A stretch of DNA of 64,000 nucleotides from Leptospira sp. (GTDB taxonomy: Bacteria > Spirochaetota > Leptospiria > Leptospirales > Leptospiraceae): NCBI GenBank assembly GCA_034439575.1, contig JAWXAQ010000015.1, positions 176,705 to 240,704 of the forward strand, read 5' to 3'. A program made the translations under genes and the position numbers. Shown in pieces: positions 11,479 to 42,625 of this stretch. The notes under the pieces were generated by a model. It worked only from the letters and a program-made list of their open reading frames with translations. It was not told the DNA's origin and made no database searches. How positions within the stretch are numbered: position 1 is the first letter of the stretch; each line of letters starts with the position of its first letter.

Positions 11479-11487
11479 GATTTTCCT

Positions 11488-11511: not shown

Positions 11512-11557
11512 TAAAGAATCCTAAAGAATAGGAAAAATATGTCAAATAATATTCGAA

Positions 11558-12190: not shown

Positions 12191-12218
12191 TTTTGAATTA
12201 GAATTTCAAAAGATTATA

Positions 12219-13169: not shown

Positions 13170-13199
13170 GGCTTTTGCAATAGAAGCCTATGCAAAGAA
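13160..13199 (-). terminator. Stem-loop, putative sulP terminator, overlapping the TPM gene start codon
   Basis: Minus strand TTCTTTGCAT-A-GGCTT..AAGCC-ATGCAAAGAA, followed 5 nt later by a T7 tract. Confidence 0.45.
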
Positions 13200-13232
13200 T
13201 CTAAAAAAACAATCTTTTTTCCAAACTTAGAT

Positions 13233-14843: not shown

Positions 14844-14863
14844 TTTTTTTCCTTTTGTTGCTT

Positions 14864-25486: not shown

Positions 25487-26332
25487 TCATTTTCTACCTT
25501 TTGAACCTTGGTTTTTGGGAGCATCCTTTACTTTTCTTTGATAGGCTTTCGCTAATTCTTCCGCTCGGGAAAATATAGAATTTAAATCAGAATATTTTCC
25601 ATAATTTAGTTCTTCCGCCAAACTCAAATTATATCTGATTTCATTTAAACAAGCAAACAAGATATCAAGGGCCCTAATCTTTTCACGACGATACGGGGAT
25701 TTTCTTGCTCTGGCGGCAGAATTTACTGCTTTTACGCTATATTTGCGAAGTCCAGAGGCTAATATTTCTTGTTCGTGACTTGGCAAATCATTGGCTATCG
25801 TATATACATTTTTTAGTAGTTTGAGTGTCGTGATCCAAAGTGGAAATCGTTTATACACCTCACCAAATTTACGCATCTCTTCAGAGGTATTCTTGATATC
25901 TAGTTCTTTTGCCGCAATTAGATCTAAAAATTCCTTTGGAATTGGGACAACTTTCCTTTCTTCATAATTAAAAAATAATACAGAGATACGGACTCTTGTT
26001 ACAGAGACCATACCATGATCTTTTGTTAGATGAAAAAATAACTCAAATGACTTTTCACGCAAATTTTCTATAGTAACTTTTGCTTCAACTAAATCGCCAA
26101 AGAGTAGCTCAGATTCGTACGTAACCGTCGCATTACTAAAAATGATGCTACGTCCATAAATGTCCAAAACAGAAAATCCAAGGTATTGGAAAAATTGCAA
26201 ATGAGCTTCTAGTACAAGATCGAGTACTGTCGCAAACGAAACATGTAATTCCCCCCAAAGGTCCGTTTTGCGGATTGGGATCTCAGTCTTAAAATGATAT
26301 TTACTTGGGAGTGGTAAATCGACTTTCGCCAT
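25487..26332 (-). CDS. Hot-dog thioesterase fused to a four-helix-bundle (23S rRNA IVP/Avd-like) domain
   Basis: N-terminal IRKTDLWGELHV..EA thioesterase. The C-terminal LW...VY..ANDLPSHE..LASGLRK...EIRYNLSLAEELNY matches the four-helix-bundle pattern. Confidence 0.75.
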   Translation of the reverse strand: MAKVDLPLPSKYHFKTEIPIRKTDLWGELHVSFATVLDLVLEAHLQFFQYLGFSVLDIYGRSIIFSNATVTYESELLFGDLVEAKVTIENLREKSFELFFHLTKDHGMVSVTRVRISVLFFNYEERKVVPIPKEFLDLIAAKELDIKNTSEEMRKFGEVYKRFPLWITTLKLLKNVYTIANDLPSHEQEILASGLRKYSVKAVNSAARARKSPYRREKIRALDILFACLNEIRYNLSLAEELNYGKYSDLNSIFSRAEELAKAYQRKVKDAPKNQGSKGRK

Positions 26333-26333
26333 A

Positions 26334-26783
26334 TTATTTTACCGAATATCGATTCCTGAATGTTTCAGGTACATTCATGGTTTTTTTATCTTTATAATCA
26401 AAGAAAATTAACACGGTTTTTGCGACCGAAGCAATTTCGCCATTTTCTTTTTTAACAACTGTAATTAATTCAAACGATTTATTTCCGAAATTGGTAGGTG
26501 TTAATTGGAACGTTAAAACTTCACCAGCTTTCACTTCGCTTTTAAATTCGACTTCCATCTTCGGCACAATGATATTTGAACCAGCTATGTTCCATTTTGA
26601 ATCCCCAGTGGATGATAAAAACAAATCAAAGGCTTCATTCACAAGTAAAACCATGTTTTCATATGTCACATGACTTACATAGGCACCAGAAGCGGTGATA
26701 GCACTGCGAGCATCTGCATGCCTTACTGGAAATTTTGTCTCATAAGCAAAGTCAGTTGGTATTTGGATTCCTGTATCAGCCAT
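26334..26783 (-). CDS. 4HBT/YbgC-like acyl-CoA thioesterase
   Basis: VRHAD...HV, VEFKSEV, VPETFR; hot-dog fold pattern. Confidence 0.82.
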   Translation of the reverse strand: MADTGIQIPTDFAYETKFPVRHADARSAITASGAYVSHVTYENMVLLVNEAFDLFLSSTGDSKWNIAGSNIIVPKMEVEFKSEVKAGEVLTFQLTPTNFGNKSFELITVVKKENGEIASVAKTVLIFFDYKDKKTMNVPETFRNRYSVK

Positions 26784-26927
26784 ATCACTCCGAATCTTTA
26801 ATCGAAATTAAGTTCTTCTCCTCAAATATCGACACTTATATGTACGTTCTTTAAAAAGCAAAAAACTAGCTGGACAAAGCTAGGGAATCACTCTATATAG
26901 TAAGCTACTTCAAACCTCGGAGAATCC

Positions 26928-28202
26928 ATGGTAGAAAGAAAAAACCAACGAGTTGTCATTACTGGTATAGGATCTATACTACCGAATGCACTCACTGTCT
27001 CTGATTTTTGGAGTCATCTAGTCAAGGGTGAATCGCAAGTAGATTTTTTGACTAGGTTTTCTACTGAAGATTTGAGAGTCAAAACGGGTGCAGAGTTACG
27101 CCAATTCGACTATAAAGAGCATTTGAAAGATTTAGATCCTGCCCATGCGAAAAATTATAATCGAGAGACATTGGCCATCATGTCCGCATTAAGCGATGCA
27201 CAAAAAGATGCAGGACTTGACAAAAATACAGTCGCACCTAACAGGGTTGGATTTATTGACTCCTCTTCCCGCGCATCACTTGCTTGGTGGGAACACGCAT
27301 GGAATTTATATAATGAATCAAAAGACGATTCACATTTTAATAAATACGCCGTTCTGACTTCAATGGCCTCAAATCCGACCAATCTAACAGCAATTTATGC
27401 GAACATCCAAGGGTTTGTCACGACAATAACAGCCGCTTGTGTGGGCGGTCATCACGCCGCAGCACTTTGTTTTCAAGCAATCAGAAAAAATAGAGCTGAT
27501 GTGATGTATGCGGGAGGGCACGAGTTCCCTCTCCTTAAACCGCTTATGAAAATGTATTCCGATCCTTCTAGTTCAGTGATGTCTCCTGAATCTGTGAATC
27601 CAAAAAATGCCATGCGACCTTATGATAAATCCAGAGAAGGGTTTGTACTCGGTGAGGGAGCCATGTGCCTTTGTTTGGAATCATACGACCATGCCATAAA
27701 TCGTGGTGCTAGAATCTATGCGGAAATAACTGGTACTCTTAGTTACAATGAAGCAAGTCATGCTATGCGAATGGATATGACGGGCGTTAAAGCTGCCAAT
27801 GGTATGAGTGATTTACTTCGCATTAGCAAACGCTCTTTGAAAGATTTTGATTATTTTTGTGGCCATGGAACTGCTACGTATAATAATGATTTGGCCGAAA
27901 GCCGCGCTCTAAAATTATTATATGACGGGGCACCAAAAACCACTTGGGCACCACTTGGATCTATCAAACCCATTTATGGTCATACGTTTGGTGCCGCTGG
28001 TATCATCAATTTAGCAGCCTCTGCTCTAATGATTCACAACCAAACACTTTGTCCGACGATTAATTTGAAAAATCCAGATGATGAATGTGACCACGATCAT
28101 GTGGCAGAAGGCTCGAGAAAAATCAAACTCAATAATATTATGTCATTGGCATTTGCCATAGGTAGCCAATCTTCATTCGTCAGTTTAGCCAAAGCAGATT
28201 AA
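26928..28202 (+). CDS. Beta-ketoacyl synthase, FabF/KAS II-like
   Basis: RVVITGIG, TAAC (Cys), HGTAT and GHTFGAAG (His, His), GFVLGEG. Confidence 0.92.
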   Translation: MVERKNQRVVITGIGSILPNALTVSDFWSHLVKGESQVDFLTRFSTEDLRVKTGAELRQFDYKEHLKDLDPAHAKNYNRETLAIMSALSDAQKDAGLDKNTVAPNRVGFIDSSSRASLAWWEHAWNLYNESKDDSHFNKYAVLTSMASNPTNLTAIYANIQGFVTTITAACVGGHHAAALCFQAIRKNRADVMYAGGHEFPLLKPLMKMYSDPSSSVMSPESVNPKNAMRPYDKSREGFVLGEGAMCLCLESYDHAINRGARIYAEITGTLSYNEASHAMRMDMTGVKAANGMSDLLRISKRSLKDFDYFCGHGTATYNNDLAESRALKLLYDGAPKTTWAPLGSIKPIYGHTFGAAGIINLAASALMIHNQTLCPTINLKNPDDECDHDHVAEGSRKIKLNNIMSLAFAIGSQSSFVSLAKAD

Positions 28203-28208
28203 TATTCT

Positions 28209-29963
28209 ATGAACCAAAGAATCGCCAAAAGATTTGAAGACCCTGACCAAATGGTAAAAGAAATGTTACCACTTGGTGCTTCAATCCATTTGGCGGCGAC
28301 TATGTCTAGACCCAATGCATTGATATACGCTTTGACTAGACAATTCTTTGATAAAAAGCCAGACTTCACGATCAGTGTGGCAGGTCTTCATTCCAGTGCT
28401 CATGCTCTTACTATGGCAGGTGTGATCAAAAAAGCCATCATAGGATTTGCGGGCGACAATTACCCACGTCCGCAACCAAATGCTCTTTATTCAAATATCT
28501 TAAAGGGAGAACCTTTCGAAGTAGAACTTTGGTCTCTCCTAACATTGATTCAACGATTGCAAGCAGGGGCAATGCGTTTACCCGGATTTGTTACTAATTC
28601 ACTATTGAAAACCGACATGATTACAGACAAATTAAATAAAACTGTGCATGTTTATCCTTCACCGGATTCAACGGAGAAGGATCCAAAAAATTTTGCAGTC
28701 GTACAACCACTTAACCCAGATTTTACTTTAATCCACGCAGTTCTTGGCGATGAAGATGGAAATTTACTCCTTACAAATCCTTCAGGTGAAGGAATTTGGG
28801 GAGCCATGGCCGCTACTAAAGGTGTGATAGCAACTTGTGAAAGAATTGTCCCAAGAGGTTCAATACCAGCAGAACTTATATCTATTCCTGGGACCAGAGT
28901 GATATCTATCGCCGAAGCTAAGTTTGGTGCACATCCTCAATCATTGCGCATATTTCCACTCCCTCATCTTGAGATTTATAATGAATTGTCAACTTATATG
29001 GATGACTACGAGTTTCAAATTGATGCAAACCATGCGGCGGCTGGAGATGAAAAACTAAAGAAACGTTGGATGGATGAATGGGTTTATGGACCGAAGAGCC
29101 ATGAAGATTACCTTCGTTATGTGGGCAGCCAACGCCTCAGAAAATTAACAAAACTTCCAGACCCTCAACCCATGTTACCGCCCCAAGATGCAGAATCAGT
29201 CAATGATTCCGAACAAATGATCATTCTTGCCGCGAGAGCCATTATGGAACATGTGAAACGGCGAGGATATACGACACTCCTAGCTGGAATCGGAGCCGCA
29301 CATATCGCTTGTTGGACGGCCGCTCGCCTTCTTGCCAAAGAAGGAATTCCGGTTCACGTCATGACAGAACTCGGTTTTTATTCCATGACACCTTCTGTGG
29401 GAGATGTATTTCTCTTTAGCCAACTTCATGCCAATGGATCACAAGGTCTTTCGGACATCACACAGATTTTAGGTATGCTCGTTCCCGATAAGTGTTTGGG
29501 AGTGATGGGTGCAGCAGAAATAGATTGGTTTGGAAACGTGAACTCTATTGCCACAGCAAAGGGAAAATTTATCGTAGGTTCGGGCGGTGCCAATGATATT
29601 GCCTCAACAGCAGATTGTATTATTGTAGCAAAAGCGATACGTCAAAGGTATGTAAGAAAGGTCAATTTTATTACCACAAATGGGGATAGAGTCAAAGAAG
29701 CGGTTTGCCAATTCGGTCGATTCAGAAGGGATAAAATGGAACATCTTTTTGAATTCACTAATTGGATAGCCCCTCCCTCAGATCCCGAAATGGAAGTGGA
29801 AGAAGCAGTTTTAAAATTCACAAGTTGGTTTCCTCCAGATGAAATTCCTCCCAAGGATGAGCCAAAGCCCACTTCTGAGGAATTGACAATTCTTAGATCA
29901 CTTGATCCAGATCGAATTTATATAGAGCAGTTTATGGTTTACAGAAGCCTTCCAGGAGATTGA
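28209..29963 (+). CDS. Fused alpha+beta family I CoA-transferase-fold protein (GctAB/IpdAB/AibAB-like)
   Basis: PDFTLIHA..D.DGN, AKFGAHP, AGIG, TELG (catalytic Glu position), AAEIDWFGNVN, GSGGANDIAS. Confidence 0.82.
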   Translation: MNQRIAKRFEDPDQMVKEMLPLGASIHLAATMSRPNALIYALTRQFFDKKPDFTISVAGLHSSAHALTMAGVIKKAIIGFAGDNYPRPQPNALYSNILKGEPFEVELWSLLTLIQRLQAGAMRLPGFVTNSLLKTDMITDKLNKTVHVYPSPDSTEKDPKNFAVVQPLNPDFTLIHAVLGDEDGNLLLTNPSGEGIWGAMAATKGVIATCERIVPRGSIPAELISIPGTRVISIAEAKFGAHPQSLRIFPLPHLEIYNELSTYMDDYEFQIDANHAAAGDEKLKKRWMDEWVYGPKSHEDYLRYVGSQRLRKLTKLPDPQPMLPPQDAESVNDSEQMIILAARAIMEHVKRRGYTTLLAGIGAAHIACWTAARLLAKEGIPVHVMTELGFYSMTPSVGDVFLFSQLHANGSQGLSDITQILGMLVPDKCLGVMGAAEIDWFGNVNSIATAKGKFIVGSGGANDIASTADCIIVAKAIRQRYVRKVNFITTNGDRVKEAVCQFGRFRRDKMEHLFEFTNWIAPPSDPEMEVEEAVLKFTSWFPPDEIPPKDEPKPTSEELTILRSLDPDRIYIEQFMVYRSLPGD

Positions 29964-29964
29964 T

Positions 29965-30948
29965 ATGAATAGCATGGGTGCAGGACAGTTAAAATATTTA
30001 GGTGTTGAATTCCGCGGAGTTGGACACTACCTCCCCGAGCGAATCGTGTATAACGATGAAATCCGTTCTCGATTGAAATACCCAGAAATGCACCCAGCAG
30101 AAAAAGCTGTGATCGGAAATATTGGTGTCACGGAACGTCACCGTGTAAATGAAACAGAGACGGTTCCCTTTATGGCAATGAAGGCCGCACAAGACGCATT
30201 AGCTGATGCTAAGATGAAACCGGAAGATATTGATTTATTTATTTTGGCCAATTGGACAGACAGATACTACCTTCCCGATCTCGCACCTCAAGCCTCAAAA
30301 CTAACAGGGACAAAAAATGCACTCGCCTTTGATATTTCAACAGCTTGCACTGGTTTTGTGCATGGCGTTCAAATGGCGGCATGTTATTTACAATCTGGTC
30401 GATGGAAAAACGCCCTTGTCATCGGTTCTGAACGATTTAGTGTCAGAACAAGAATGGGTGGATATGGTGAATTTACTGCGGGTGATGCGGCGGCTGGTGT
30501 TGTATTATCGCATACAGGTAGTCAGACGACAGGTCTTATTGATTCATTTTTAGTAGATGAGGCAGACTTAGCCGATATTATCGTGACAGGTCCACCACCA
30601 CAAAGTTATGTGAAAAGTTATCCTGAACTTGTGACAAATGCAGCAGACCTCACATTGAAAGCATTTGATATGCTTATGGAAAAACATGGCTTAAAAGAAA
30701 CCGATGTGGATTGGGTAGTTCCTCATCCAGGTACAGATATTGTTGTTCAAGATGTACTAAATCGGATTAAATTCCCGCGCGAAAAAGTATTGGGAAATTT
30801 TGACAGAGTGGGAAACGCATCGGCGGCTTCAATCCCTATCGTTATATCGGAATATTATAAAAAAGGAATAATCAAGAAAGGTCAGCTGTTGTTAACACCT
30901 GCTGTCGGTGGAGGCTTCTATTGGGGTGGCCTTCTTTTCCGTTTCTAG
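29965..30948 (+). CDS. 3-oxoacyl synthase III, FabH-like
   Basis: STACTGF (Cys), PHPG (His), GNASAASIP (Asn), GGGFYWG. Confidence 0.9.
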   Translation: MNSMGAGQLKYLGVEFRGVGHYLPERIVYNDEIRSRLKYPEMHPAEKAVIGNIGVTERHRVNETETVPFMAMKAAQDALADAKMKPEDIDLFILANWTDRYYLPDLAPQASKLTGTKNALAFDISTACTGFVHGVQMAACYLQSGRWKNALVIGSERFSVRTRMGGYGEFTAGDAAAGVVLSHTGSQTTGLIDSFLVDEADLADIIVTGPPPQSYVKSYPELVTNAADLTLKAFDMLMEKHGLKETDVDWVVPHPGTDIVVQDVLNRIKFPREKVLGNFDRVGNASAASIPIVISEYYKKGIIKKGQLLLTPAVGGGFYWGGLLFRF

Positions 30949-30968
30949 TTTAAAAAGAGAGTTAAAGT

Positions 30969-33900
30969 ATGATTTCATTTTCTGGCTACCATATCCGTAA
31001 GCGGATGAATGCTGAAGGTTCACCTTCCCAAGTTTATTTAGGCGTATCAAATGATGACGGTAAAGAAGTCGTCATTAAATTTATCTCTATCTCTGATCCT
31101 TTACATGCAGCAATTGTTAACTTAAGAAATGAGTTTGAGATCCTCACTTATTTACATGGCCATGGTTTAGGGATTAAACCTTTTGAATTCAGAAGATTAC
31201 CTGATGGGCATGCGCTTGTCATGGATTATTTAAAAGGTTTGTTCCTTCCTGATATCGTTGCAAATAAAGATGACCACCAAATGCCACTCGGCATGTTTTA
31301 TGATGTCGCCATTAGTTTAGCCGAAGACCTCGCAGAATTGCATCGCCACAAAGTGATGCATAAAGATATCAAGCCAGATAATATTATTTATTTTCCAGAA
31401 ACTAACAAAGCAAAGTTGATAGACTTTGGTATTTCAACTAGACTTTCCAAAGAAGAAAGTGGTTTTTATGCACCTAACCAATTAGAAGGTTCAGTCCAAT
31501 ACATTTCTCCAGAACAAACGGGAAGGATGAACAGGTCAGTCGACTATAGGACGGATTTTTATTCCTTGGGTATTTTATTTTTTGAATTAGCCGCAGGTCA
31601 ATTGCCTTTCAAAGGCTCTGATTTAATGGAAATCATTCACTCTCATATTGCGAAGCCGCCAAAAAATCCAACGGACATAAACTCAAAAATACCTGCTTCC
31701 CTCAATGCTATCATCTTAAAGTTATTAGAAAAAAATGCAGAAAATCGTTATCAAACTTCTTATGGATTAAAATTCGATTTAGAAAAATCCCAAAAACTTT
31801 TCAAAGATGGCAAACTAGACGAATCATTCCCGTTAGGTGCTAGAGACTTCTCAGAAGAATTTCGTATACCTCAAAAACTTTATGGTCGTGAAGAAGAACT
31901 CAAACAGCTACTTTCTTCCTTTAATAAAGTTGGACTTGAAGGTACAACTGAAGTTGTATTGATTGGTGGCTATTCTGGTGTTGGTAAATCATCACTCGTC
32001 AAAGAAGTTCAAAAACCGATCACTGCTCTTCGTGGTTATTTTTTAACCGGCAAATACGACCAGTATAATCGTAGCGAACCATTTAGTGCCATCTTACAGG
32101 TATTATCCTCACTTGTTCGGATGATCTTAACTGAACCTCCCGAATCAATTGCAAGATGGAAAGAAAGAATTCTTTCGGCATTAGGTAGCAATGGTAAGGT
32201 GATAACTGACATTTTACCTGATTTGATTCATATTGTTGGAGAACAAAAAAGCGTAGCCGAAATGGGAGCTAGTGAAAACGCAAACCGTTTTTACGCTGTG
32301 TTTTTAGAATTCATTCGAGTGTTTGCTGATCGTGAACATCCACTCGCCATCTTTTTGGATGATATGCAGTGGGCGGATTCTGCATCCTTACAACTTCTCC
32401 GAACACTTTTAGATGATAGATCAACTGGTTCACTATTTATCATGTTAGCATACAGAGATAATGAAACAGATGCGAATCATCCATTTACTTTACTTATTGA
32501 AGATATCAAAAAAGAAAGTGGATCTCTACCTTCTATCATACTTAAACCACTTTCAAATGCGAATGTTGCCGAATTATTAAGTGACTCACTATATACCCCA
32601 AAGGCCAATGTACAGCCATTAGCTGATCTTCTCGCTTCAAAAACAGGCGGAAATCCATTTTTCATTACTGAACTACTCAAACAATTAATCCGAAAAGATT
32701 TGATACGTTTCGATGGCTCTGCGGGTTCAGAAGGCCAAGGTGCTTGGATTTGGGATCTCGCCAAGATCAAAGAAGCTGCCATCTCAGACAATGTCGTCGA
32801 GTTGTTATTACAAAGGATGCGTTCTCTTCCCAAAGAAAGCCAAGATTTGCTCCGAACAGCATCAAGTATCGGTAACCAATTTGACCTCTATACACTAGCT
32901 CAAATCACTCATTACAGTTATAGCGAAATAGTAAAGTTAGTTGGTGATACAGTCAGAGAAGAACTTTTCATTCCGCTTGGCGATGATTATCGCAAAATTG
33001 ATTCACTCGGAAATGAAGATAATGATGAAAATAAAAATACTGCCATTTCCATCCGTCTCAGGTTCCAACATGACCGTGTTCAACAAGCTGGTTATGAATT
33101 GTTATCTGCGGATGAAAGACCAAAACTCCATCTTGCGATCGCCAAAGTATTATTAGCCTCCACTTCCAAAGAACAACTCGAAGAGAAAATTTTTGATATA
33201 GTTGGACATTGCAATAAAAGTGTCAAAGCGACAACCAACAAGGATGATTATCGTCAATTTTTAGACTTGAATTTGACTGCCGCCAAACGTGCCAGAAGTG
33301 CGGCCGCTTATTCTCCATGTCTAGATTATCTCAAAACAGCTGAACTTCTTTTGAATCTTATTTATCCCGACGATAATAAAGTTTGGAGCGCAGAATATGA
33401 ACTTGCGTATGATTTGTATCGAGGATTAGCGGAAGCTGAATACCTAAATGGAAATTTTGAAGCCTCAGAGAAACTCATTTCAAATATTCTCAAACATGTT
33501 AAAACTCCATTAGAGAAAGCAGAAACATATAAAATCTTAATTATCCAATATTCACTAAAAGCAGCTTACAAAGAATCAGTGGATGCTGGACTAGATGCAC
33601 TTAGCCTACTTGGGATCAATATTTCCAAAGAAAATGTGGATGAAGCGATTGGCAAAGAAGTAGCCAGAATCAAAGAACTTTCTGAAGGTAAAATCACTGA
33701 ATCACTGATTGATGCACCTTTGATGGAAAATACGGAGATGAAGGTTGCTGTGACTCTCCTAACAGACCTTATGAGTCCATGTTGGAATTCCTATCCAAAC
33801 ATGTTTCCATTGTTAGTTTTTCGAACTGTAAATCTTTATTTGGAACATGGTTTAAATCCAGTTTCATATGGTTATTCTTGTTATGGTATCATTCTTGGAA

Positions 33901-36323
33901 GTGGATTTGGCCAATTCAAAGATGGTGATGATTATGGAACTCTTGCCTTCCGTATCGCAGAAAAATTTCAATCCAAGTCTGACTTGACAAAAGCGGCTAA
34001 CGTTCTTGGTAATTTTACAAGTCCTTGGGTTCGTCACGTTAAACATTCGGAAGAAATAAATAGACAAGGTCTAGAAGCATCATTAGAATCCGGGGAATTC
34101 CAACACGGGTCTCTTGGGGCAATGAACACACCTGTTTGTTTATTTTTCCAAGGAAAACAACTTTCCGAATTCACAAATGATATCAATAGACTTTTATCCT
34201 TCGGCAAAAAAGTAAAGAGTATCCTAGCAACCGACACGGTAATGGCGTTTGACCTGATCGTAAATAACTTACGTGGTCTCACCCCTGCCGCATTAGAATT
34301 TAGAAATGCTACAATCACAGAAGAAGAGTATTTAAAAACTTGTGAAGAACACAAAGGTTTGTATTCCATCACACTTTATAATATTCTAAAAGCCCAAGCT
34401 TTATATATTTATGAAGAACCAGAAGAGGCGCTTAGGTTATTAGAGGAAGCAAACAAAAATATCGTTTTCCTATTTGGCCTCGTAAGCAATGCAGAGTTGA
34501 ACTTTTTTATATCTTTATGTTTGTCTAGTTTGTACAAAATCAAATCAACAAGCGAAAGAAAAGAGATCATCGTCCGCATCAAAGCAAATCAAAAACAGAT
34601 GAAAATCTGGGCTCAAAATTCTCCTGAAAACTTCTATCACAAATTTCTTCTCATAGAAGCAGAACTTGCTAGATTAGAATACAAAAACTGGAAAGCTGCA
34701 AAGTTATATGACCAAGCAGTAACTGAAGCTCGCGCAGGTGAATTCGTCCAAATGGAAGCGATCATTTCCGAAGTTTCTGCTAGGTTTTGGTTATCAAAAA
34801 AGAATGATCGTAATGTAGCCGAATACTATACCGACGCATACAAGTTATACGAACAATGGGGTGCCACACGCAAGTGTACTGAATTAAAAGAACGATATCC
34901 TGATTATATCATTGAAAATCGCCAATTCACTGGCTCCAAAAATTTTGCACTTACCATTTCTGCAACGACCACAGATATTTATTCTGGTCAATCTCTTGAC
35001 TTACAATCAGTAGTTAAAAGCTCTGTAGCCATTTCTGGAGAAATTCAATTCGAAAGTTTGATTACAAAATTGATGTCCATCATGATGGAAAATGCGGGCG
35101 CCGAAAAAGGTGTACTGCTTTTACGCGACGGCGAAGGGTTGTTTGTCGAAGCTGAACATTCCGTAGGAAAAGGCGAGATGCGAACTTTGATGCACGAACC
35201 GTTAGAAACATTTATGAATGTTCCACGTTCGGTGATCTATTTTACCGAACGAACTCGTGAGATTTTGGTATTAAACTGTGCGACCAAAGACACTCGATTT
35301 GCCATTGATAAGTATGTCCAAGAAAACCAAATTAAATCTGTATTTTGCGTTCCGATTTTAAAGCAAGGTGCCTTGTCGGGTATCCTCTATTTAGAAAACA
35401 ATTTATCGGAAGGAGCCTTTACACCAGAAAGGCTTCAAACCATTGGCTTACTCAGTTCACAAGCGGCGATCTCCCTCGACAATGCCCTACTCTACCAAAG
35501 TTTGGAAGAAAAAGTTCGTGATCGTACACAAGAGTTAGCTCATGCTAACGATGAATTGGCGGAGAAAAACAAACATATCACAGAATCGATCACTTATTCA
35601 CTTAACATTCAACAAGCGATGTTACCTGCTATGGATGCGCTCAAACAATCATTTAACGATTACTTTGTGTTGTATATGCCAAAGGATATTGTTTCTGGAG
35701 ACTTCTTTTGGCATGCCAAAAAAGATGATTGTGTGTTACTCGCTGTTGCCGATTGTACTGGTCACGGAGTTCCAGGCGCACTGATGTCGATGATTGGTAT
35801 CAATTCACTTAATGCTATTGTGAATGAAAAAGGTATCACAGATCCTGCAAAAATTTTAGAAGAATTAAATATTCGTGTTCGCACTGTTTTGCGACAGGCT
35901 GAAAATGATGCTAACTCAATGGATGGTATGGATATTTGCCTAATTCGTTATACGGGAAACTCACTTCAATTTGCTGGTGCGAAACGTCCACTTTACATCT
36001 ATGGGCCAGAAGGTTATAGAGAGTATAAGGGTGATAAGTCTTCCATTGGGGGAAGACAAAAAGAAGAATTGAGAACCTATACAACTCATGAGATATCGTA
36101 TACACCTGGTAAAACGGTTGCATATCTATCCACTGACGGATATACTGATCAATCAAATACGGAACGAGTTCGAGTATCGACAAAGAATTTTTTGAAAATT
36201 GCGGAAGAGAATCTTTCAAAGTCAGGCGAAGCCCAAAAGGATGCCTTTTTGTCCTTTTTACGAAGTCACATGGGAACAGAACAACAAAGAGACGATATCA
36301 CGATCGCAGGTATCGTGATTTAA
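30969..36323 (+). CDS. Multidomain Ser/Thr kinase, AAA/STAND-like ATPase, helical repeats, GAF and SpoIIE/PP2C phosphatase (HstK-like architecture, SiaA position)
   Basis: HKDIKPDN, DFG, SPEQ; GYSGVGKS and LDDMQWAD; GAF (CVPI..GILYLEN); VSGDF, ADCTGHGVPGA, TDG, RDDIT. Confidence 0.92.
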   Translation: MISFSGYHIRKRMNAEGSPSQVYLGVSNDDGKEVVIKFISISDPLHAAIVNLRNEFEILTYLHGHGLGIKPFEFRRLPDGHALVMDYLKGLFLPDIVANKDDHQMPLGMFYDVAISLAEDLAELHRHKVMHKDIKPDNIIYFPETNKAKLIDFGISTRLSKEESGFYAPNQLEGSVQYISPEQTGRMNRSVDYRTDFYSLGILFFELAAGQLPFKGSDLMEIIHSHIAKPPKNPTDINSKIPASLNAIILKLLEKNAENRYQTSYGLKFDLEKSQKLFKDGKLDESFPLGARDFSEEFRIPQKLYGREEELKQLLSSFNKVGLEGTTEVVLIGGYSGVGKSSLVKEVQKPITALRGYFLTGKYDQYNRSEPFSAILQVLSSLVRMILTEPPESIARWKERILSALGSNGKVITDILPDLIHIVGEQKSVAEMGASENANRFYAVFLEFIRVFADREHPLAIFLDDMQWADSASLQLLRTLLDDRSTGSLFIMLAYRDNETDANHPFTLLIEDIKKESGSLPSIILKPLSNANVAELLSDSLYTPKANVQPLADLLASKTGGNPFFITELLKQLIRKDLIRFDGSAGSEGQGAWIWDLAKIKEAAISDNVVELLLQRMRSLPKESQDLLRTASSIGNQFDLYTLAQITHYSYSEIVKLVGDTVREELFIPLGDDYRKIDSLGNEDNDENKNTAISIRLRFQHDRVQQAGYELLSADERPKLHLAIAKVLLASTSKEQLEEKIFDIVGHCNKSVKATTNKDDYRQFLDLNLTAAKRARSAAAYSPCLDYLKTAELLLNLIYPDDNKVWSAEYELAYDLYRGLAEAEYLNGNFEASEKLISNILKHVKTPLEKAETYKILIIQYSLKAAYKESVDAGLDALSLLGINISKENVDEAIGKEVARIKELSEGKITESLIDAPLMENTEMKVAVTLLTDLMSPCWNSYPNMFPLLVFRTVNLYLEHGLNPVSYGYSCYGIILGSGFGQFKDGDDYGTLAFRIAEKFQSKSDLTKAANVLGNFTSPWVRHVKHSEEINRQGLEASLESGEFQHGSLGAMNTPVCLFFQGKQLSEFTNDINRLLSFGKKVKSILATDTVMAFDLIVNNLRGLTPAALEFRNATITEEEYLKTCEEHKGLYSITLYNILKAQALYIYEEPEEALRLLEEANKNIVFLFGLVSNAELNFFISLCLSSLYKIKSTSERKEIIVRIKANQKQMKIWAQNSPENFYHKFLLIEAELARLEYKNWKAAKLYDQAVTEARAGEFVQMEAIISEVSARFWLSKKNDRNVAEYYTDAYKLYEQWGATRKCTELKERYPDYIIENRQFTGSKNFALTISATTTDIYSGQSLDLQSVVKSSVAISGEIQFESLITKLMSIMMENAGAEKGVLLLRDGEGLFVEAEHSVGKGEMRTLMHEPLETFMNVPRSVIYFTERTREILVLNCATKDTRFAIDKYVQENQIKSVFCVPILKQGALSGILYLENNLSEGAFTPERLQTIGLLSSQAAISLDNALLYQSLEEKVRDRTQELAHANDELAEKNKHITESITYSLNIQQAMLPAMDALKQSFNDYFVLYMPKDIVSGDFFWHAKKDDCVLLAVADCTGHGVPGALMSMIGINSLNAIVNEKGITDPAKILEELNIRVRTVLRQAENDANSMDGMDICLIRYTGNSLQFAGAKRPLYIYGPEGYREYKGDKSSIGGRQKEELRTYTTHEISYTPGKTVAYLSTDGYTDQSNTERVRVSTKNFLKIAEENLSKSGEAQKDAFLSFLRSHMGTEQQRDDITIAGIVI

Positions 36324-36367
36324 CAAAGATGATAGTATGATATTAGAGGAGAAATGTTAAAAATTAT

Positions 36368-36919
36368 ATGCAAAAAATGGATATCTTAACCTACGAACAG
36401 TACAAAACCATGTCGGATCACCGACTCCTGATTCACTTTAAGGGTGCTCTATACCAAGACATCCTTACAGAATTAGGCAGTATTATACAGACCTCGATGA
36501 AGGGTGAAACTAAAATTAAGAAGATTTTTGCCGTTTTTGTCGAACTTGCTCAGAATATTCTTCATTATTCTCTTGAAAGGATAGCGAATCCTGACGAATC
36601 TACATCTGGAGTCGGTATGATTGTGGTGACGGAAAGACCAGAAGGATATTATGTCAGTTCTGGAAATTATATTTCGTCAGATAAAATCACGGGAATTGAG
36701 GAAAAGATCAAATTTATAAATGAGCTCTCTCCCGAGGAAAAAAAATCATACTACACAAAACAATTGCGCTCCGATCGACCAGACGATAGTAAAGGTGCTG
36801 GAGTTGGGCTTATCGACATTGCTCGAAAGTCTGATGCACCGCTTGAGTATTCGATCGAAAATGTTCCAGAAGGGAAATCCTTCTTTACATTAACCGCATT
36901 TTTCAAGAAGGAAGATTAA
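36368..36919 (+). CDS. siaB: SiaB family protein kinase
   Basis: FVELAQNILHYS N-box, SGN, GAGVGLIDIARKS; followed by a SiaC homolog. Confidence 0.87.
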   Translation: MQKMDILTYEQYKTMSDHRLLIHFKGALYQDILTELGSIIQTSMKGETKIKKIFAVFVELAQNILHYSLERIANPDESTSGVGMIVVTERPEGYYVSSGNYISSDKITGIEEKIKFINELSPEEKKSYYTKQLRSDRPDDSKGAGVGLIDIARKSDAPLEYSIENVPEGKSFFTLTAFFKKED

Positions 36920-36922
36920 TCA

Positions 36923-37297
36923 ATGGAAACGATTCGCATCGCAAGTACAAAAAATTCACCCGAAGTCACTCTCGATTTTGAGAATGGAATCGCTGAAGTC
37001 GCAGGAGAATCTTATCCTGAAAATGCCGTCAGTTTTTTTAAACCCGTTTTCGAATGGCTTAATCATACTATTTCGCAAAAGAAGCCCTTTAAGTTTTTAT
37101 TTAAATTAGATTATTTTAATACTTCATCTTCTAAATGCATTATCGATATTCTGGATCTACTTCAAATTTATCATACTAACGGTGGTAAGATTAACGTCGA
37201 GTGGTACTATCGCCAAGACGACGAAGATATGAAAGATACTGGTGAAGAATTTTTAGAAGATGTAGATTTACCTCACGAACTGATTGCTTACAAATGA
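36923..37297 (+). CDS. siaC: SiaC (DUF1987) STAS-like phospho-switch protein
   Basis: TKNSPEV, GESYPEN..FFKP, YFNTSSSK (phospho-Thr), WYY...DEDM...GEEF. Confidence 0.9.
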   Translation: METIRIASTKNSPEVTLDFENGIAEVAGESYPENAVSFFKPVFEWLNHTISQKKPFKFLFKLDYFNTSSSKCIIDILDLLQIYHTNGGKINVEWYYRQDDEDMKDTGEEFLEDVDLPHELIAYK

Positions 37298-38739
37298 GTG
37301 GTGTTTTCGAAGAAGAACATGAAGCCTGGAGCCAAATCCAAGAGGCTCTCAAACAACCAAACCTCAATACCTCAGAATTAAAAAATCTGGCAGATACTAT
37401 GTCTGCTAGATTTGGTAACCTTTTAAAACAAACAGAAAAACTAACAAAAGTTGGCGATTCCGCACAAAATCGATTGATGCGAATCCAAAACGAATTACAA
37501 AATTCAAATTCAAAATTAGAAAAATCTATACGAAATCTCCACCTACTCTCTGAGTTAGGAAAAGTCATCACCTCTTCGTTAGACGCAAAGAAAATTTTAT
37601 CAGAATTATATAATCAACTGAAAGATGAAATGGATCTAGATATCATTTCTGTAGGAAGTTACGACCAAGAATCAGACAGCGTAAAATATAAATTCAGTCT
37701 TAACCAAGGCAGTTATGTGCCTTCGATTTTTTTAGAAAACTTAAATGAGGACAATTATTCTTCTATTTGCATTCGCGGGAATAAAGAAGTCATTTTAGAA
37801 GATTTAAACTTAGAAACACCAGAACGTATTGCAGGCCTTCGCAAACAATGGGGAGAAGAAATTCGATCTATCGTTTTTATTCCATTAAAAGTAGAAGACA
37901 GAGTTGTGGGTGTTTTCACCATTCAAAGTCGCAATGCAAATGCTTACAATTACCAACAACTCAATATTATACGATCACTTGCAAGTTATCTTGGTATTGG
38001 TCTAGATAACGCAGATGCATACCGTAGTTTATCTAAAAGAAACAAAGATCTAAAATCTTCTTTAGAGAAAGTTCGCTCATTAAATGAAAATTTGGCGCTC
38101 GAACGTCAAAAATCTGAGAATTTATTATTAAACATTTTGCCAGGTCCTATCGCAGAACGCCTCAAAAGTGGTGAAGAAATCATTGCAGACTTTTTTCAAG
38201 ATGCTTCTGTTTTATTCGCAGATATCGCGGGTTTTACTGTCCTCAGTTCCAAGATGAATGATGCGACTAAACTAGTTTCAATATTGAATGATATTTTTCG
38301 TGATTTTGATAACATCACCCAAGAGTTTGGTTTAGAAAAAATTAAAACGATTGGTGATTGTTATATGTTAGCTGGTGGAATTCCAAATGCAGCACCTGAT
38401 CACTTGGACCGCATGGCTAAAGCAGCCCTTCGTTTTTGCCATGTTTTTGAAAAAATCAAAAATGATTGGGGTCTTGATATCAATGTTCGTATTGGAATTC
38501 ATTCTGGCGAAGTAGTCGCTGGTGTGATAGGAAAGTATAAATTCGTATATGACCTCTGGGGTGATACTGTGAACATAGCTTCGCGTATGGAATCACATGG
38601 CCAAGTGGGCAGAGTGCATGTATCGAAAGAAGTTTACAATCGTTTGAAAGATAGTTATCATTTTGAAGCTCGTGGTGAAATTGACGTCAAAGGAAAAGGA
38701 AAGATGGAAACATGGTTCCTTGGCTCTACTAAAAATTAA
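37294..38739 (+). CDS. Class III adenylate cyclase with SiaD-like N-terminal coiled coil and GAF domain
   Basis: LLLNILP, LFADIAGFT, KIKTIGDCYM, YDLWGDTVNIASRMES; N-terminal EKLTKVGDSAQ. Confidence 0.9.
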   Translation: MSGVFEEEHEAWSQIQEALKQPNLNTSELKNLADTMSARFGNLLKQTEKLTKVGDSAQNRLMRIQNELQNSNSKLEKSIRNLHLLSELGKVITSSLDAKKILSELYNQLKDEMDLDIISVGSYDQESDSVKYKFSLNQGSYVPSIFLENLNEDNYSSICIRGNKEVILEDLNLETPERIAGLRKQWGEEIRSIVFIPLKVEDRVVGVFTIQSRNANAYNYQQLNIIRSLASYLGIGLDNADAYRSLSKRNKDLKSSLEKVRSLNENLALERQKSENLLLNILPGPIAERLKSGEEIIADFFQDASVLFADIAGFTVLSSKMNDATKLVSILNDIFRDFDNITQEFGLEKIKTIGDCYMLAGGIPNAAPDHLDRMAKAALRFCHVFEKIKNDWGLDINVRIGIHSGEVVAGVIGKYKFVYDLWGDTVNIASRMESHGQVGRVHVSKEVYNRLKDSYHFEARGEIDVKGKGKMETWFLGSTKN

Positions 38740-39429
38740 TTAAGTTTGAACTTTTATCCCTATTTGAATCAACCGTAATAGAGCAACTAACTGTTGCTCT
38801 ATTTTTTTGACATCTTCCTCAGTTTTTGCAGATCGGATGTTCCTTTCGTTTAAGTTAGCAAAACCATGAACAGCACTCCAAACGGACATAGATAATGTTT
38901 CTGCATCATCATCTTTTTTAAAAACCCCTCTCTCTTGCCCAAGAGCTATGATATCGTAAAGACCCATATATGCCTCGCGACCTACAATGGAAAGCTCTTC
39001 GGGAACAGGTCCTTCTAAATAAATTTCACCACTAAACATAAGTTCGGTGCGTCTTGGATTTTTCCAAGCCAATCTTATATAATTCTCACCAGCCTGATTT
39101 AATTTTACAATAGGATCGTCACTGAGATTCCAAGCATCTCGCAAGGTATCTCTCAATTCTTTGAAACCCAGGGAAGTGATGGCATAAAGAAGATCTATTT
39201 TCTTAGGAAAATGGCGGTATGGTGCCGTATGACTCACACCAATAGCTGCCGCGACATCACGTAAACTAAGATTATAAACACCGCGTGCCTCCAAAAATTC
39301 GCAAGATTTAATTAAAACTAGATTTCGAAGGTCCCCATGATGATAATTTGCCTCTATTAATTGTCCTTTGGATTTTGCCTTTTTTGTTTGAGAGATTAGG
39401 GATTTTTTTTTAGTAATATTTTTTTTCAT
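38740..39429 (-). CDS. TetR family regulator (WHG-type C-terminus)
   Basis: YHHGDLR, LSLRDVA..GVSHTAPYRHF, WSAVHG. Confidence 0.92.
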   Translation of the reverse strand: MKKNITKKKSLISQTKKAKSKGQLIEANYHHGDLRNLVLIKSCEFLEARGVYNLSLRDVAAAIGVSHTAPYRHFPKKIDLLYAITSLGFKELRDTLRDAWNLSDDPIVKLNQAGENYIRLAWKNPRRTELMFSGEIYLEGPVPEELSIVGREAYMGLYDIIALGQERGVFKKDDDAETLSMSVWSAVHGFANLNERNIRSAKTEEDVKKIEQQLVALLRLIQIGIKVQT

Positions 39430-39432
39430 TCT

Positions 39433-39494
39433 ATATATACACTGTATACATTATTTGTTGACAATGGAAACATCTATGTTTACACTGTATATAA
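39433..39494. promoter_or_regulatory. Three tandem 19-bp pseudo-palindromic operators overlapping a sigma70 promoter
   Basis: ATATATACACTGTATACAT (39433), TTGTTGACAATGGAAACAT (39455), ATGTTTACACTGTATATAA (39476); TTGACA 39458 + 17 nt + TACACT 39481. Confidence 0.75.
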
Positions 39495-39567
39495 AGTAAA
39501 TTTTCATTTCCGGCGATGTCAATCCAAATTCATAACAGGAAATTAAAGCCGAACCTAAGGAGTCTAT

Positions 39568-40530
39568 ATGCGTATTTTAAATTTTCCCCCTTTAAGTGAT
39601 CCAAGATCGGCCAATTATTGGAATCTGATTTTTATGTTCATTTTCACATGTATTCTGATACCACTCAATCTTTTTGATCAGAGCCTTATTTCTGGTGCCC
39701 CAAAATGGATCAAACCATTGAAGTTTTCTATGTCAATCGGTCTCTACTCCATCACATTTCTTTGGATACTCCAATTTATGAATCTGAAAGACAAATGGTT
39801 AACAAGAATTTCTTGGACGATTACAATCACACTGATCATAGAAATGATAGCCATTTTCGGTCAAGTGGTGAGAGGTGAGGCGAGTCATTTCAATATATCC
39901 TCTCCGCTAAATGGATTTATTTTTTCGATCATGGGTACAAGTATAGGAATTATGTGGTTTGCCCATCTAAGTGTAGGTATTTACATATTTCGCCTAAAGA
40001 AGATTAACTCATACCTTAGAGAATCATTGTTATGGGGGATTTGTATTTCTGCATATGGAATGATAATCGGTTTTTTTATGACAGTACCAAGACCAGAACA
40101 AATTGAACTTATGCAACAAGGAATCATGCAAGTGAATGGAGGCCACAGCTTTGGTGCGCCAGACGGGGGTGTAGGTGTTTTATTTTTGGGATGGAGTACT
40201 GTTGCGGGTGATATGCGAGTTCCGCATTTTTTTGGAATGCATGCGATCCAATTTTTTTCTATCCTATCAATTTTCAAATTAGGACTAAAACCCGAAACTT
40301 CAATAGAAAAAATAAATCGAACAGGCCTTAGATTCATGGCCATGGCTTGGTTTGCCATATCCATACTTATGACCATCCAAGCATTAAATGGTGAATCAAT
40401 ATTTAGAACCAGTCAGAATTTTCTAATTGGGTATATAATATCTGGAATCATTGGTATTATTGGAATGGTTTTAAATACTCAAAAATTCAATTTTTTCTTA
40501 AATTCAAATAACAAAACAAAGGTGGCATAA
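39568..40530 (+). CDS. Conserved multi-pass membrane protein
   Basis: WIKPLKF, RGEASHFN, GDMRVPHFFGMHAIQ; AAGGAG RBS. Confidence 0.75.
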   Translation: MRILNFPPLSDPRSANYWNLIFMFIFTCILIPLNLFDQSLISGAPKWIKPLKFSMSIGLYSITFLWILQFMNLKDKWLTRISWTITITLIIEMIAIFGQVVRGEASHFNISSPLNGFIFSIMGTSIGIMWFAHLSVGIYIFRLKKINSYLRESLLWGICISAYGMIIGFFMTVPRPEQIELMQQGIMQVNGGHSFGAPDGGVGVLFLGWSTVAGDMRVPHFFGMHAIQFFSILSIFKLGLKPETSIEKINRTGLRFMAMAWFAISILMTIQALNGESIFRTSQNFLIGYIISGIIGIIGMVLNTQKFNFFLNSNNKTKVA

Positions 40531-40531
40531 A

Positions 40532-40969
40532 ATGAATGCATCACAAATTTTTCAAATCGTAAATCCATTAGCTGGAATGGCATGGATACTTCTAATTGTC
40601 ATTCCAAATTGGAAGTATACAAAATTGATAACTTCTGTTATCTTACCTGCATTAATTTTTGCAGGGATTTATGTTTTTTCCTTGGGCCTTTCTTTTGGTC
40701 ATTCTGAAGGCGGATTTGGTAGTTTGGAAGAAGTTCGAAGTTTATTCGCGAACGACAACGCATTACTTGCCGGTTGGATTCACTACCTAGCTTTTGATTT
40801 ATTTGTAGGAACTTGGGAGATGGAAGACTCTCAAAAGAATGGTATCTCAAGATTTATTGTCGCCCCATGTATGTTTTTAACATTTATGTTTGGTCCGACA
40901 GGTCTATTGTGTTATACGGTGATCAAATTGATAATAAAAAAAAATCTATCATCCTCCATAAACGTCTAG
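40532..40969 (+). CDS. ABA4-like (DUF4281) membrane protein
   Basis: LAGWIHYLAFDLFVG and LTFMFGPTGLL. Confidence 0.85.
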   Translation: MNASQIFQIVNPLAGMAWILLIVIPNWKYTKLITSVILPALIFAGIYVFSLGLSFGHSEGGFGSLEEVRSLFANDNALLAGWIHYLAFDLFVGTWEMEDSQKNGISRFIVAPCMFLTFMFGPTGLLCYTVIKLIIKKNLSSSINV

Positions 40970-42625
40970 TAAGGATATAATTCTTTCGTATCTTCCTAGT
41001 TTCTCTTCATCTCCTTCTAATTCCGCGATCTCAAGTTCTTCCAGAGCTAGGTCGCGGCCAGTTTTTCCATCCTTATTCTTAAGATTTGCCTTTGCACCCG
41101 ATTCTAGTAATAAAGCTAATATGGCAGAGTGTCCAAATTTGCAACTTTCGTGTAGGGACGAATTGTTATTGAAATCTAAAATATCAACGATAGCTCCAGC
41201 TTGGATTAATTTTTTTGCAAGCGATGGTTCCCCAAAAAGGGCGCACCAATGTAAGGCGGCCATTCGATTTTCTGATTGGTGATTCACGTCTATTCCAAGA
41301 CTTATGAAAGTATCCAAAATCGAAAGTTTATCTTGAAGGTGCATTTGACTATTTTGACAAAGTTTAAAGACCGCAGTCTCACCTACAGTGTTTTGATAAT
41401 TTGGATCAGCACCTGCTTCTAACAAAAGCTTGGCGCAATGAAAACCATCTCCAGAAACTGCTTCTTCGAGCAATGAAAAACCCAATGGATTACTGTCTTC
41501 ATCGTCCTTTACATAATTGGGCGAAAAACCTGATTCTAAGAGTGCCGCTAGACTTTCAGCATCATCCCTTGTGATCATAGTAACAGGGTCTTTAGGAATT
41601 ACGATGCGATGGGAGATATCATCTAGGATTTCCTGGATTTCTTTGGGGTATCTTTTTTTTAAAATTTGAATGTAACTTTCATTTTTATGAGGAGAGCTTT
41701 TTATTTTTTTCTTTAAAGTAATCCAAAAGATCTCTTCGACGATCACTTGATTTGCGATCATAAAAACAATCGCTTCGTTCAATGTTTTTTCAAAAAGCGG
41801 TATCTCAAATAAAATGTTTTCTTGTAAGAATTTTAAATTTTGATCTTCGTTTGTATCATCATTTCTCCAAACATTGATTAGATCTAAAAAAATATCACTT
41901 TTTTCTTTTTCAGTAAGTCGATTAAAACTATCTTGAACATCAAAAATATTTCCAGAAATAAGTAATACTTTTGACGTTAGTTGGTGTGAAATGTTTTGTG
42001 GAAGAACAACTTTGTTTGCACTATCAATAGTAAAATCTACTATAATAATTTTTGTCGCATGAAATGATCCAAAAATATAACTGTTATGTGAATCAGGAAT
42101 CGCTAAATAAATTTTTCCTATCACTTCATGTGGGGAATCTTCCTCGATAAATATGGAAAGTCTATAAGCGGCATGTGCTTTATAGATGTCTGATACATTT
42201 AATTCACGATTTAGATTTGGTGGGTCACTGGGTTGAATATCAAATTGAAGGCCTTTTAATTTCTTCGCATCGCTAATTCCTGTGATCGAAATGAAATGTT
42301 TGGGATTTATGATATCTGATTCATGGATTGGTAAAAATAACACTCGTTTGGCAAACCAATAAACATTAAAACTTTCTATAGATTGGCCACTCAAATGACC
42401 AGAAATATAATTGTCTGGTATCGATTGATTGAAATCCAAATCGAATGAAATCTCTTTTTTTGAGATTTGATTTTCAGTCTTAATAGAAGATACGGTTACA
42501 ACAAAAGAAAAAGGTGTATGTGCTCGACAACGTATACATCGAAATTTTCCTTTTTTGCCATTCACCTTCTCTTCTGAAATTTCATGGTCGGCTAGGCAAT
42601 GTTGGCATCGCAATAATACTTTCAT
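40949..42625 (-). CDS. Ankyrin-repeat protein with N-terminal zinc ribbon
   Basis: CQHC...CIRC; ankyrin repeats (LLLEAGADPN, ALHWCA, SLHESC..GH). Confidence 0.82.
   Translation of the reverse strand: MKVLLRCQHCLADHEISEEKVNGKKGKFRCIRCRAHTPFSFVVTVSSIKTENQISKKEISFDLDFNQSIPDNYISGHLSGQSIESFNVYWFAKRVLFLPIHESDIINPKHFISITGISDAKKLKGLQFDIQPSDPPNLNRELNVSDIYKAHAAYRLSIFIEEDSPHEVIGKIYLAIPDSHNSYIFGSFHATKIIIVDFTIDSANKVVLPQNISHQLTSKVLLISGNIFDVQDSFNRLTEKEKSDIFLDLINVWRNDDTNEDQNLKFLQENILFEIPLFEKTLNEAIVFMIANQVIVEEIFWITLKKKIKSSPHKNESYIQILKKRYPKEIQEILDDISHRIVIPKDPVTMITRDDAESLAALLESGFSPNYVKDDEDSNPLGFSLLEEAVSGDGFHCAKLLLEAGADPNYQNTVGETAVFKLCQNSQMHLQDKLSILDTFISLGIDVNHQSENRMAALHWCALFGEPSLAKKLIQAGAIVDILDFNNNSSLHESCKFGHSAILALLLESGAKANLKNKDGKTGRDLALEELEIAELEGDEEKLGRYERIISLLDVYGG

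Follow-up and report, generated by a model that had tools for sequence, protein, structure and literature searches.

Our results describe a four-gene cluster in a 64,000-nucleotide stretch of Leptospira sp. DNA (GenBank assembly GCA_034439575.1, contig JAWXAQ010000015.1, positions 176,705 to 240,704, hereafter the window) that probably encodes a SiaABCD-type partner switch with cyclic AMP (cAMP) as its output in place of cyclic diguanylate (c-di-GMP). SiaABC-type switches have been described only for c-di-GMP synthesis in Pseudomonas. The window shares with P. aeruginosa SiaABCD (PA0172-PA0169; PDB 6k4e, 6kko, 6kkp and 7e6g; PMC8457831 and PMC7647112) a SiaB kinase, a SiaC with an N-T-S phosphorylation site, a SiaA-type PP2C phosphatase, an output enzyme with an N-terminal helical stalk and the encoding of all components in one co-directional cluster. 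The two systems differ in the output enzyme, a predicted class III adenylate cyclase with a GAF domain in the window and the GGDEF diguanylate cyclase SiaD in P. aeruginosa, and in the placement of the PP2C domain, which ends a soluble 1784-residue kinase-ATPase-GAF protein (hereafter the giant) rather than sitting on a membrane sensor. The data presented here support a SiaABCD variant with a predicted cAMP output and a cytoplasmic multidomain sensor bearing the phosphatase; it is kept throughout much of the Leptospiraceae, also in relatives of the pathogens. If true, the partner-switch mechanism would extend to a second messenger, cAMP, and to a different enzyme fold, and a short docking module would be defined with which any genome could be scanned.

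The four open reading frames lie on the plus strand (Table 1) with the giant first, siaB following after 44 nt and siaC after a further 3 nt. The TGA stop of siaC and the ATG start of the cyclase gene overlap as a 4-nt ATGA, read directly from the sequence. This is the layout given by a first-pass annotation made from the letters of the window, and every domain it had claimed was reproduced in hidden Markov model searches with Pfam and NCBIfam and in PDB alignments. SiaB scores 170 bits against NF038262 (cut-off 85), matches Pfam DUF6272 at E 1e-41 and has chain A of 6kko as its sole PDB match, over residues 2-177 (E 8e-23). SiaC scores 141 bits against PF09345 (cut-off 24.5, E 2e-41), and its T67 (codon ACT) falls on T68, the phospho-acceptor, in the alignment to P. 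aeruginosa SiaC (6kko, 7e6g; E 3e-21). The sequence YFNTSSSK is invariant in 23 of 23 SiaC orthologues, in keeping with the NTSS phospho-threonine of the first-pass annotation. The window proteins stay below all three NCBIfam cut-offs for the Pseudomonas equivalogs: SiaB scores 102 bits (cut-off 225), SiaC 107 bits (cut-off 150), and the giant, with an N-terminal architecture different from that of SiaA, falls short of the full-length SiaA cut-off of 700 bits.

The fourth gene carries no GGDEF domain by Pfam. Its product comprises, in order, an N-terminal helix (residues 1-95), the GAF domain, a coiled-coil linker with an LLLNILP element and a class III catalytic domain. Six catalytic residues are invariant in 23 of 23 orthologues and have their counterparts at the aligned positions of mammalian AC5 C1/C2. 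We take D310 and D355 to serve the metals, K351 and D420 the adenine and N427 and R431 the transition state. K351 and D355 lie within KTIGD and D420 within YDLWGD; a lysine and an aspartate at these positions select ATP, whereas guanylate cyclases have glutamate and cysteine there. The first-pass identification of a class III cyclase with ATP-specifying residues and a GAF domain therefore stands on both the Pfam matches and this invariance, and the enzyme is predicted to make cAMP. Among solved structures it is closest to the membrane adenylate cyclases of mammals and to the Cya type of mycobacteria (E 2e-69 to 2e-58). These class IIIa enzymes (Cya/Rv1625c type, PDB 4p2f and 7yz9, and mammalian membrane) share the catalytic residues, but the window cyclase lacks their membrane anchor, and its regulation would instead run via the stalk, SiaC and the GAF domain.

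The slot of SiaA is filled by the giant. Pfam domains and hydropathy agree with the earlier description of a soluble kinase, P-loop ATPase, helical, GAF and SpoIIE protein: no clear membrane segment was found along its length, the top 19-residue hydropathy window (1.74, at residue 1165) lying inside the helical region. At the C-terminus, Pfam SpoIIE matches residues 1586-1779 (E 2e-19), residues 1510-1780 reach 206 bits against positions 384-653 of the NCBIfam SiaA model, the DCTGHGVPGA signature is present, and the sole PDB match at E<1e-5 is SiaA-PP2C (6k4e, E 9e-45). All 26 aligned giants retain Walker A, Walker B and the metal-binding motifs of PP2C. The kinase-like domain keeps K37, E55, HKD (D133), N138, DFG and SPE in nearly all of these, one having DFN; its glycine-rich loop is degenerate in all 26, with a single glycine in the four giants of the window's clade and none in the other 22. 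Leptospiraceae orthologues of the giant have an identical layout and are 44-91% identical.

The connection between SiaC and the cyclase is proposed to lie in the cyclase stalk. Within cyclase residues 1-95 the best-conserved stretch is the region of the proposed docking motif, with conservation peaks at F5/E8 and at L43-L44-x-Q46-x-x-K49-L-x-K52-[VI]-G54-D55-S56-x-Q58-x-R60-L61. Searched with a regular expression, the motif (LLKQ..KL.K[IV]GDS.Q.RL) is present in 54 of 54 stalk-GAF cyclases and, among the matches listed, in 25 of 67 other cyclase homologues, all 25 of which are short (310-382 residues) with no other sensor domain. Four of these short cyclases come with the source names Kapabacteria, Ignavibacteria or Bacteroidota, or with none, and one further protein, P0098, is a near match to the motif. 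A metagenome scan with the stalk of one short cyclase returned three loci, and in all three SiaB and SiaC are encoded directly upstream. One Leptospiraceae genome holds a second, paralogous module of SiaB, SiaC and a short cyclase in which the motif is again present. As a comparison, 80 class III cyclase loci were taken from a scan driven by the catalytic domain, which yielded mostly unrelated cyanobacterial cyclases; 79 of them lack the motif and have no SiaB/SiaC within 7 kb, and the sole locus with both is from L. borgpetersenii. Across the window's genome the stalk profile matched one of 7292 frames, this cyclase, and a motif search of the giant itself did not find the docking motif there. 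As a separate observation, an open reading frame of 150-190 residues with a double-stranded RNA-binding domain by Pfam lies between SiaB and SiaC in the three metagenome loci of short cyclases (L125:3695-4147, L126:3787-4254 and L127:3799-4371).

Modelling of the complex places this motif on SiaC. Two copies of cyclase residues 1-99 were modelled with two copies of SiaC, supplied with our own alignments, and the three runs scored 0.74, 0.80 and 0.76 against 0.13 for the best of three controls. The model of SiaC with the cyclase N-terminus that the first-pass annotation had in view thus passes its controls (0.76 versus 0.13). The runs share at least 82% of contacts, and the predicted local distance difference test (pLDDT) value of SiaC is at least 90. 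The modelled interface comprises residues 2-7, 45-46, 49-60 and 62 of the stalk and residues 31, 34-36, 64, 66-68, 70-72, 74-75, 102, 105-106, 109-110 and 113 of SiaC, with T67 predicted to contact stalk residues 50, 51, 53 and 54. This surface appears to match the crystallographic SiaC surface of P. aeruginosa SiaC-SiaD. It covers 11 of the 14 SiaC residues named at the SiaD interface in PMC8457831 (Y31, Y65, N67, T68, S69, I71, M75, R103, L107, E110 and D114), leaving Q10, D29 and D79. As a prediction, the model conveys likeness to SiaC-SiaD and is no proof of binding.

A register between the two stalks may be suggested from the residues named for SiaD. The SiaD stalk residues that touch SiaC are R74, K77, V78, R80, I81, S82, D83, R84, Y85, Q86, M88, R90 and D91 (PMC8457831), and a putative register in which K49 equals K77 would set V53 on I81, G54 on S82, D55 on D83 and Q58 on Q86. 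SiaC R103 is among the residues that hydrogen-bond the SiaD stalk, and D91 is one of the bonded stalk residues (PMC8457831). In the same register R103 of P. aeruginosa SiaC corresponds to D102 here, and D91 of SiaD to R63 (lysine in most orthologues). Should R103 and D91 pair with each other, the two changes could compensate as a swap of charges.

The arrangement is family-wide and not peculiar to this genome. A search with PF09345 finds SiaC in 71 of 114 Leptospiraceae genomes, spread over 12 of 14 genera and including 22 of 22 genomes of g12 and 24 of 24 of g13, whose locus proteins match proteins named after pathogenic and intermediate Leptospira species. The window comes from a Leptospira of the saprophyte group, because its cyclase is 91% identical to a protein named after L. 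ognonensis and 87% identical to one named after L. ryugenii; identity to proteins of L. interrogans, L. borgpetersenii, L. wolffii and others is about 50%. SiaC occurs in 4 of the 40 other genomes of the window's genus, and the stalk-GAF cyclase is found in exactly those genomes of the genus with an intact SiaC (4 of 41, the window included). We fetched 40 SiaC loci and assigned their genes by searches with the domains of the window. In this gene-neighbourhood survey SiaC is adjoined by SiaB at 31 loci, by the stalk-cyclase at 28 and by the giant at 24, and all four genes stand together at 23, among them loci from relatives of the pathogens; several of the rest are truncated by contig ends or represent extra SiaC paralogues. 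A GGDEF query matched at only one of the 40, beyond the giant gene in L025.

Some loci depart from this pattern. Several larger Leptospiraceae genomes hold extra SiaC paralogues with neither SiaB nor a cyclase nearby (L017, L019, L021, L027, L028, L031, L042 and L043). L030 is a SiaB-SiaC pair with no cyclase nearby, and at L029:8433-10710 such a pair is followed by a DUF6976 protein. The giant is split into three open reading frames and the cyclase into two at L016:2919-10831, and the cyclase into two at L039:3556-4917, in each case through decay or assembly error. At L018, where the giant is not beside SiaB/SiaC, a 1675-residue open reading frame with no Pfam family follows the cyclase (10838-15865).

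The L. interrogans counterparts of the giant and the cyclase are, judged by domain layout, lic12324 and lic12327, given in PMC5100919 as 'PK, AAA_16, GAF, SpoIIE' and 'GAF, AC/GC' and lying two locus tags apart. The correspondence draws on domain layout, tag spacing and named proteins, the L. interrogans-named proteins being 49% (giant) and 50% (cyclase) identical over full length. The five loci sampled from the genus of L. interrogans are closest to L. borgpetersenii, with proteins 86-92% identical to the L. interrogans-named ones, and the transposon insertion coordinates in PMC5100919 fit the cluster geometry seen in relatives. Transposon mutants of both genes lose fitness in hamsters, with a significant decrease in both members of each mutant pair; lic12327 mutants are also attenuated when tested alone, and lic12327 is induced by physiological osmolarity according to earlier work cited there (PMC5100919). 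PMC5100919 treats lic12324 and lic12327 as separate signalling genes and proposes no mechanism, so that the fitness loss has stood without mechanistic explanation since 2016; the cluster offers one that can be tested. The tags lic12325 and lic12326 have no occurrence in that paper and no mention was found in the literature searched. Nor was any paper found that links lic12324 or lic12327 to SiaB/SiaC, and a literature search confined to main texts turned up no account of SiaB/SiaC switching an adenylate cyclase. The wiring does not seem to have been characterised already, although its pathogen counterparts have mutant phenotypes. Related ideas are found elsewhere: DUF1987 proteins have been suggested to modulate adjacent proteins (PMC8457831), and in the STAS switches on diguanylate cyclases cited there (HsbA/HsbD and BgrV/BgrR) a small phosphorylatable protein binds a nucleotide cyclase and modulates it, as proposed here. 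Those switches differ in using the STAS family rather than SiaC/DUF1987 and in having c-di-GMP as the product.

Adjacency, joint presence and absence, the stalk motif and the complex model together support a cytoplasmic-sensing Sia pathway that controls cAMP, as the first-pass annotation had put forward. We infer the phosphotransfer steps, the binding of SiaC, the choice between activation and inhibition and the product. In the proposed mechanism, SiaB would phosphorylate SiaC on T67, and the SiaA-type PP2C at the C-terminus of the cytoplasmic giant would take this phosphate off, its activity being set by the kinase-like, AAA_16 ATPase, helical and GAF domains. Unphosphorylated SiaC may then clamp the parallel dimeric cyclase stalk at K49-L-T-K-V-G-D-S-A-Q58. 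In the model T67 packs against stalk residues 50-54 where a phosphate would not fit, and we therefore propose that phospho-SiaC lets go of the stalk. By analogy with SiaC-SiaD, docking of SiaC would stabilise the active stalk-GAF-cyclase dimer and so raise cAMP, and the GAF domain of the cyclase itself may provide a second input.

The polarity could also be the reverse of that in SiaC-SiaD, with SiaC docking on the stalk to inhibit the cyclase and phosphorylation by SiaB switching cAMP on. The stalk geometry may indeed differ from that of SiaD, as the window cyclase has one docking motif and an N-terminal F5/E8 segment and SiaD has two motifs (PMC8457831). We consider inhibition unlikely on two grounds. 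Class III cyclases work as dimers, a state that clamping of a parallel stalk should promote. In addition, L. interrogans loses fitness when either the phosphatase gene or the cyclase gene is mutated (PMC5100919), which would suit a positive role for the phosphatase, barring a polar insertion.

Several of our observations weigh against a Sia-type switch on cAMP and are taken together here, starting with the stalk. The high complex score may reflect memory of the solved complex 7e6g. In calibration 58 of 80 solved complexes reached that score mark, as did 2 of 110 mismatched pairs; these counts hold only roughly, since the supplied alignments and the two-plus-two chains depart from the calibration. 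The resemblance between the stalk and the docking site of SiaD depends on a short motif and the putative register. When the stalk profile, built from a 22-sequence alignment, was searched against the PDB at E up to 10, it returned coiled-coil noise and no SiaD (7e6g), so that the two stalks have no demonstrated homology at the sequence level. The first-pass description of a SiaD-like stalk (EKLTKVGDSAQ) is accordingly upheld in part: the motif is conserved and is modelled on SiaC, but its likeness to SiaD escaped the profile search.

The giant scaffold, moreover, is not specific to Sia systems. Full-length relatives of the giant form a large family of kinase, AAA_16, helical/TPR and GAF domains followed by a variable output (SpoIIE, HisKA/HATPase or Guanylate_cyc). 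Its first ~1500 residues are 36-41% identical to Ser/Thr kinase-AAA_16-TPR-GAF sensors named at NCBI as 'trifunctional serine/threonine-protein kinase/ATP-binding protein/sensor histidine kinase', which end in HisKA/HATPase, Guanylate_cyc or a generic PP2C, whereas the window's giant ends in a SiaA-type PP2C. The scaffold is also found in cyanobacteria without SiaC: all five cyanobacterial genomes searched lack SiaC, and three of them encode giants of the same layout (1765-1839 residues). The giant stands apart from SiaB/SiaC, being encoded elsewhere in the genome, at L018, L036, L037 and L040 (genomes G109, G002, G003 and G013). It might then belong to a separate pathway with an inherited gene order, another PP2C resetting SiaC. 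Consistent with this, the scaffold also carries histidine-kinase or cyclase outputs, and two of the genomes in which it is unlinked, G109 and G003, hold further SiaA-like PP2C genes of 471-546 residues. However, the SiaA model that matches the giant here reaches 242 bits in L. interrogans, 242 in a giant from Desulfobacteraceae and 201 in one from Bacteroidia, as opposed to 77 and 70 bits on two cyanobacterial giants; SiaA-PP2C is the only solved structure matched by the phosphatase end; and the giant adjoins SiaB/SiaC at more than half of the fetched loci, in several genera. A Pfam search of the other open reading frames near the clusters found no alternative phosphatase. We therefore regard the scaffold as a general sensor chassis and the SiaA-type phosphatase as the part tying the giant to SiaC, and a giant that is not the SiaC phosphatase as distinctly improbable.

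The partnership of SiaC with the cyclase has exceptions too. Locus L012 of genome G087 encodes the giant, SiaB and SiaC with no cyclase, and a search with the window cyclase found no stalk-GAF cyclase in G087 or in its relative G088, which are of one genus, have genomes of 3.7 Mb and both keep SiaC. SiaC may for this reason have other targets. Taken further, SiaB and SiaC might act mainly on another target with the cyclase merely a neighbour, for which the retention of the giant and SiaB at the G087 locus and the SiaC paralogues that have no cyclase nearby in some Leptospiraceae genomes can be cited. We give this very little credence. The siaC and cyclase genes overlap and, within the genus, each is found only where the other is. 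In other lineages the motif accompanies SiaB/SiaC, the complex model scores well above its controls, and no other protein of the window's genome carries the stalk.

Expression and phenotype likewise leave room for caution. Metatranscriptome contigs from two runs of one study span the giant/SiaB, SiaB/SiaC and SiaC/cyclase junctions, which is weak support: DNA carry-over is possible, a contig does not establish a single transcript and parts of the giant are uncovered, so that these contigs from RNA libraries prove neither transcription nor one transcript. The matching phenotypes of lic12324 and lic12327 could be a polar effect instead of the sign of a shared pathway.

With a SiaABCD-type switch on cAMP retained as the preferred reading, a wider view can be offered as a tentative and rather doubtful speculation. 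SiaC might be a portable regulator of a stalk module of ~25 residues that has been grafted onto different enzymes, the module being defined as an F-x-x-E segment plus LLKQ-x-x-K-h-x-[KR]-h-[GS]-D-x-x-Q-x-R-L. In Leptospiraceae a STAND-like cytoplasmic sensor with kinase-like and phosphatase domains would set cAMP, the attenuation of lic12324 and lic12327 mutants would be due to cAMP, and the conserved upstream ketoacyl synthase and CoA-transferase may make or report the sensed metabolite.

Table 1. Features of the cluster and its flanks, in window coordinates
Feature	Position	Strand	Residues	Basis
Three upstream genes: beta-ketoacyl synthase, CoA-transferase-domain protein, KASIII-like	26928-30948	+	584 (CoA-transferase-domain protein)	
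Giant cytoplasmic sensor: kinase-like, AAA_16 P-loop ATPase, helical/TPR-like, GAF, SiaA-type PP2C	30969..36323	+	1784 aa	Open reading frame, Pfam
Giant, kinase-like domain	31014..31757	+	aa 16-263	Pfam Pkinase, E 2e-35
Giant, AAA_16 ATPase (Walker A GYSGVGKSS, Walker B FLDD)	31875..32441	+	aa 303-491	Pfam, E 1e-38
Giant, GAF	35052..35477	+	aa 1362-1503	Pfam, E 4e-11
Giant, SiaA-type linker and PP2C	35496..36308	+	aa 1510-1780	NCBIfam SiaA model, PDB 6k4e
SiaB-family protein kinase	36368..36919	+	183 aa	NF038262, Pfam DUF6272
SiaC-family phosphoprotein (predicted phospho-acceptor T67 at 37121-37123)	36923..37297	+	124 aa	PF09345
Stalk-GAF-class III adenylate cyclase, proposed output enzyme	37294..38739	+	481 aa	Pfam, alignments, conservation
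Cyclase, proposed SiaC-docking motif on stalk, LLKQTEKLTKVGDSAQNRLMRIQ	37420..37488	+	aa 43-65	Conservation, modelled interface
Cyclase, GAF	37582..38007	+	aa 97-238	Pfam GAF_2, E 6e-11
Cyclase, class III catalytic domain	38194..38721	+	aa 301-476	Guanylate_cyc PF00211, 209 bits, E 4e-62
Terminator-like hairpin, 11-bp stem then T run	38777-38803	+		Consensus match only

The genes around the cluster offer some indication of its context. Upstream of the giant, gaps of 6 nt between the ketoacyl synthase and CoA-transferase genes, 1 nt between the CoA-transferase and KASIII genes and 20 nt between KASIII and the giant are small enough that the three may be in one operon with it. A KASIII gene lies beside the cluster at 20 of the 40 fetched SiaC loci, a neighbourhood that hints at a link between an acyl or ketoacyl pathway and the switch. 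At the other end, the terminator-like hairpin sits 38 nt past the cyclase stop and has the longest stem among 18 such sites in 26000-40000; going by its sequence, it is likely the end of the transcription unit. A promoter scan was uninformative, with 35 sites found and 39.1 expected by chance. Two thioesterase-like (4HBT_2) genes at 25487-26783 on the minus strand are divergent from the ketoacyl-synthase gene, and one of them is fused to a 23S rRNA intervening-sequence protein/bAvd-like domain. Beyond the cluster, also on the minus strand, a 558-residue protein (40949-42625) that begins with a zinc ribbon and has ankyrin repeats at its C-terminus is kept in the three closest relatives.

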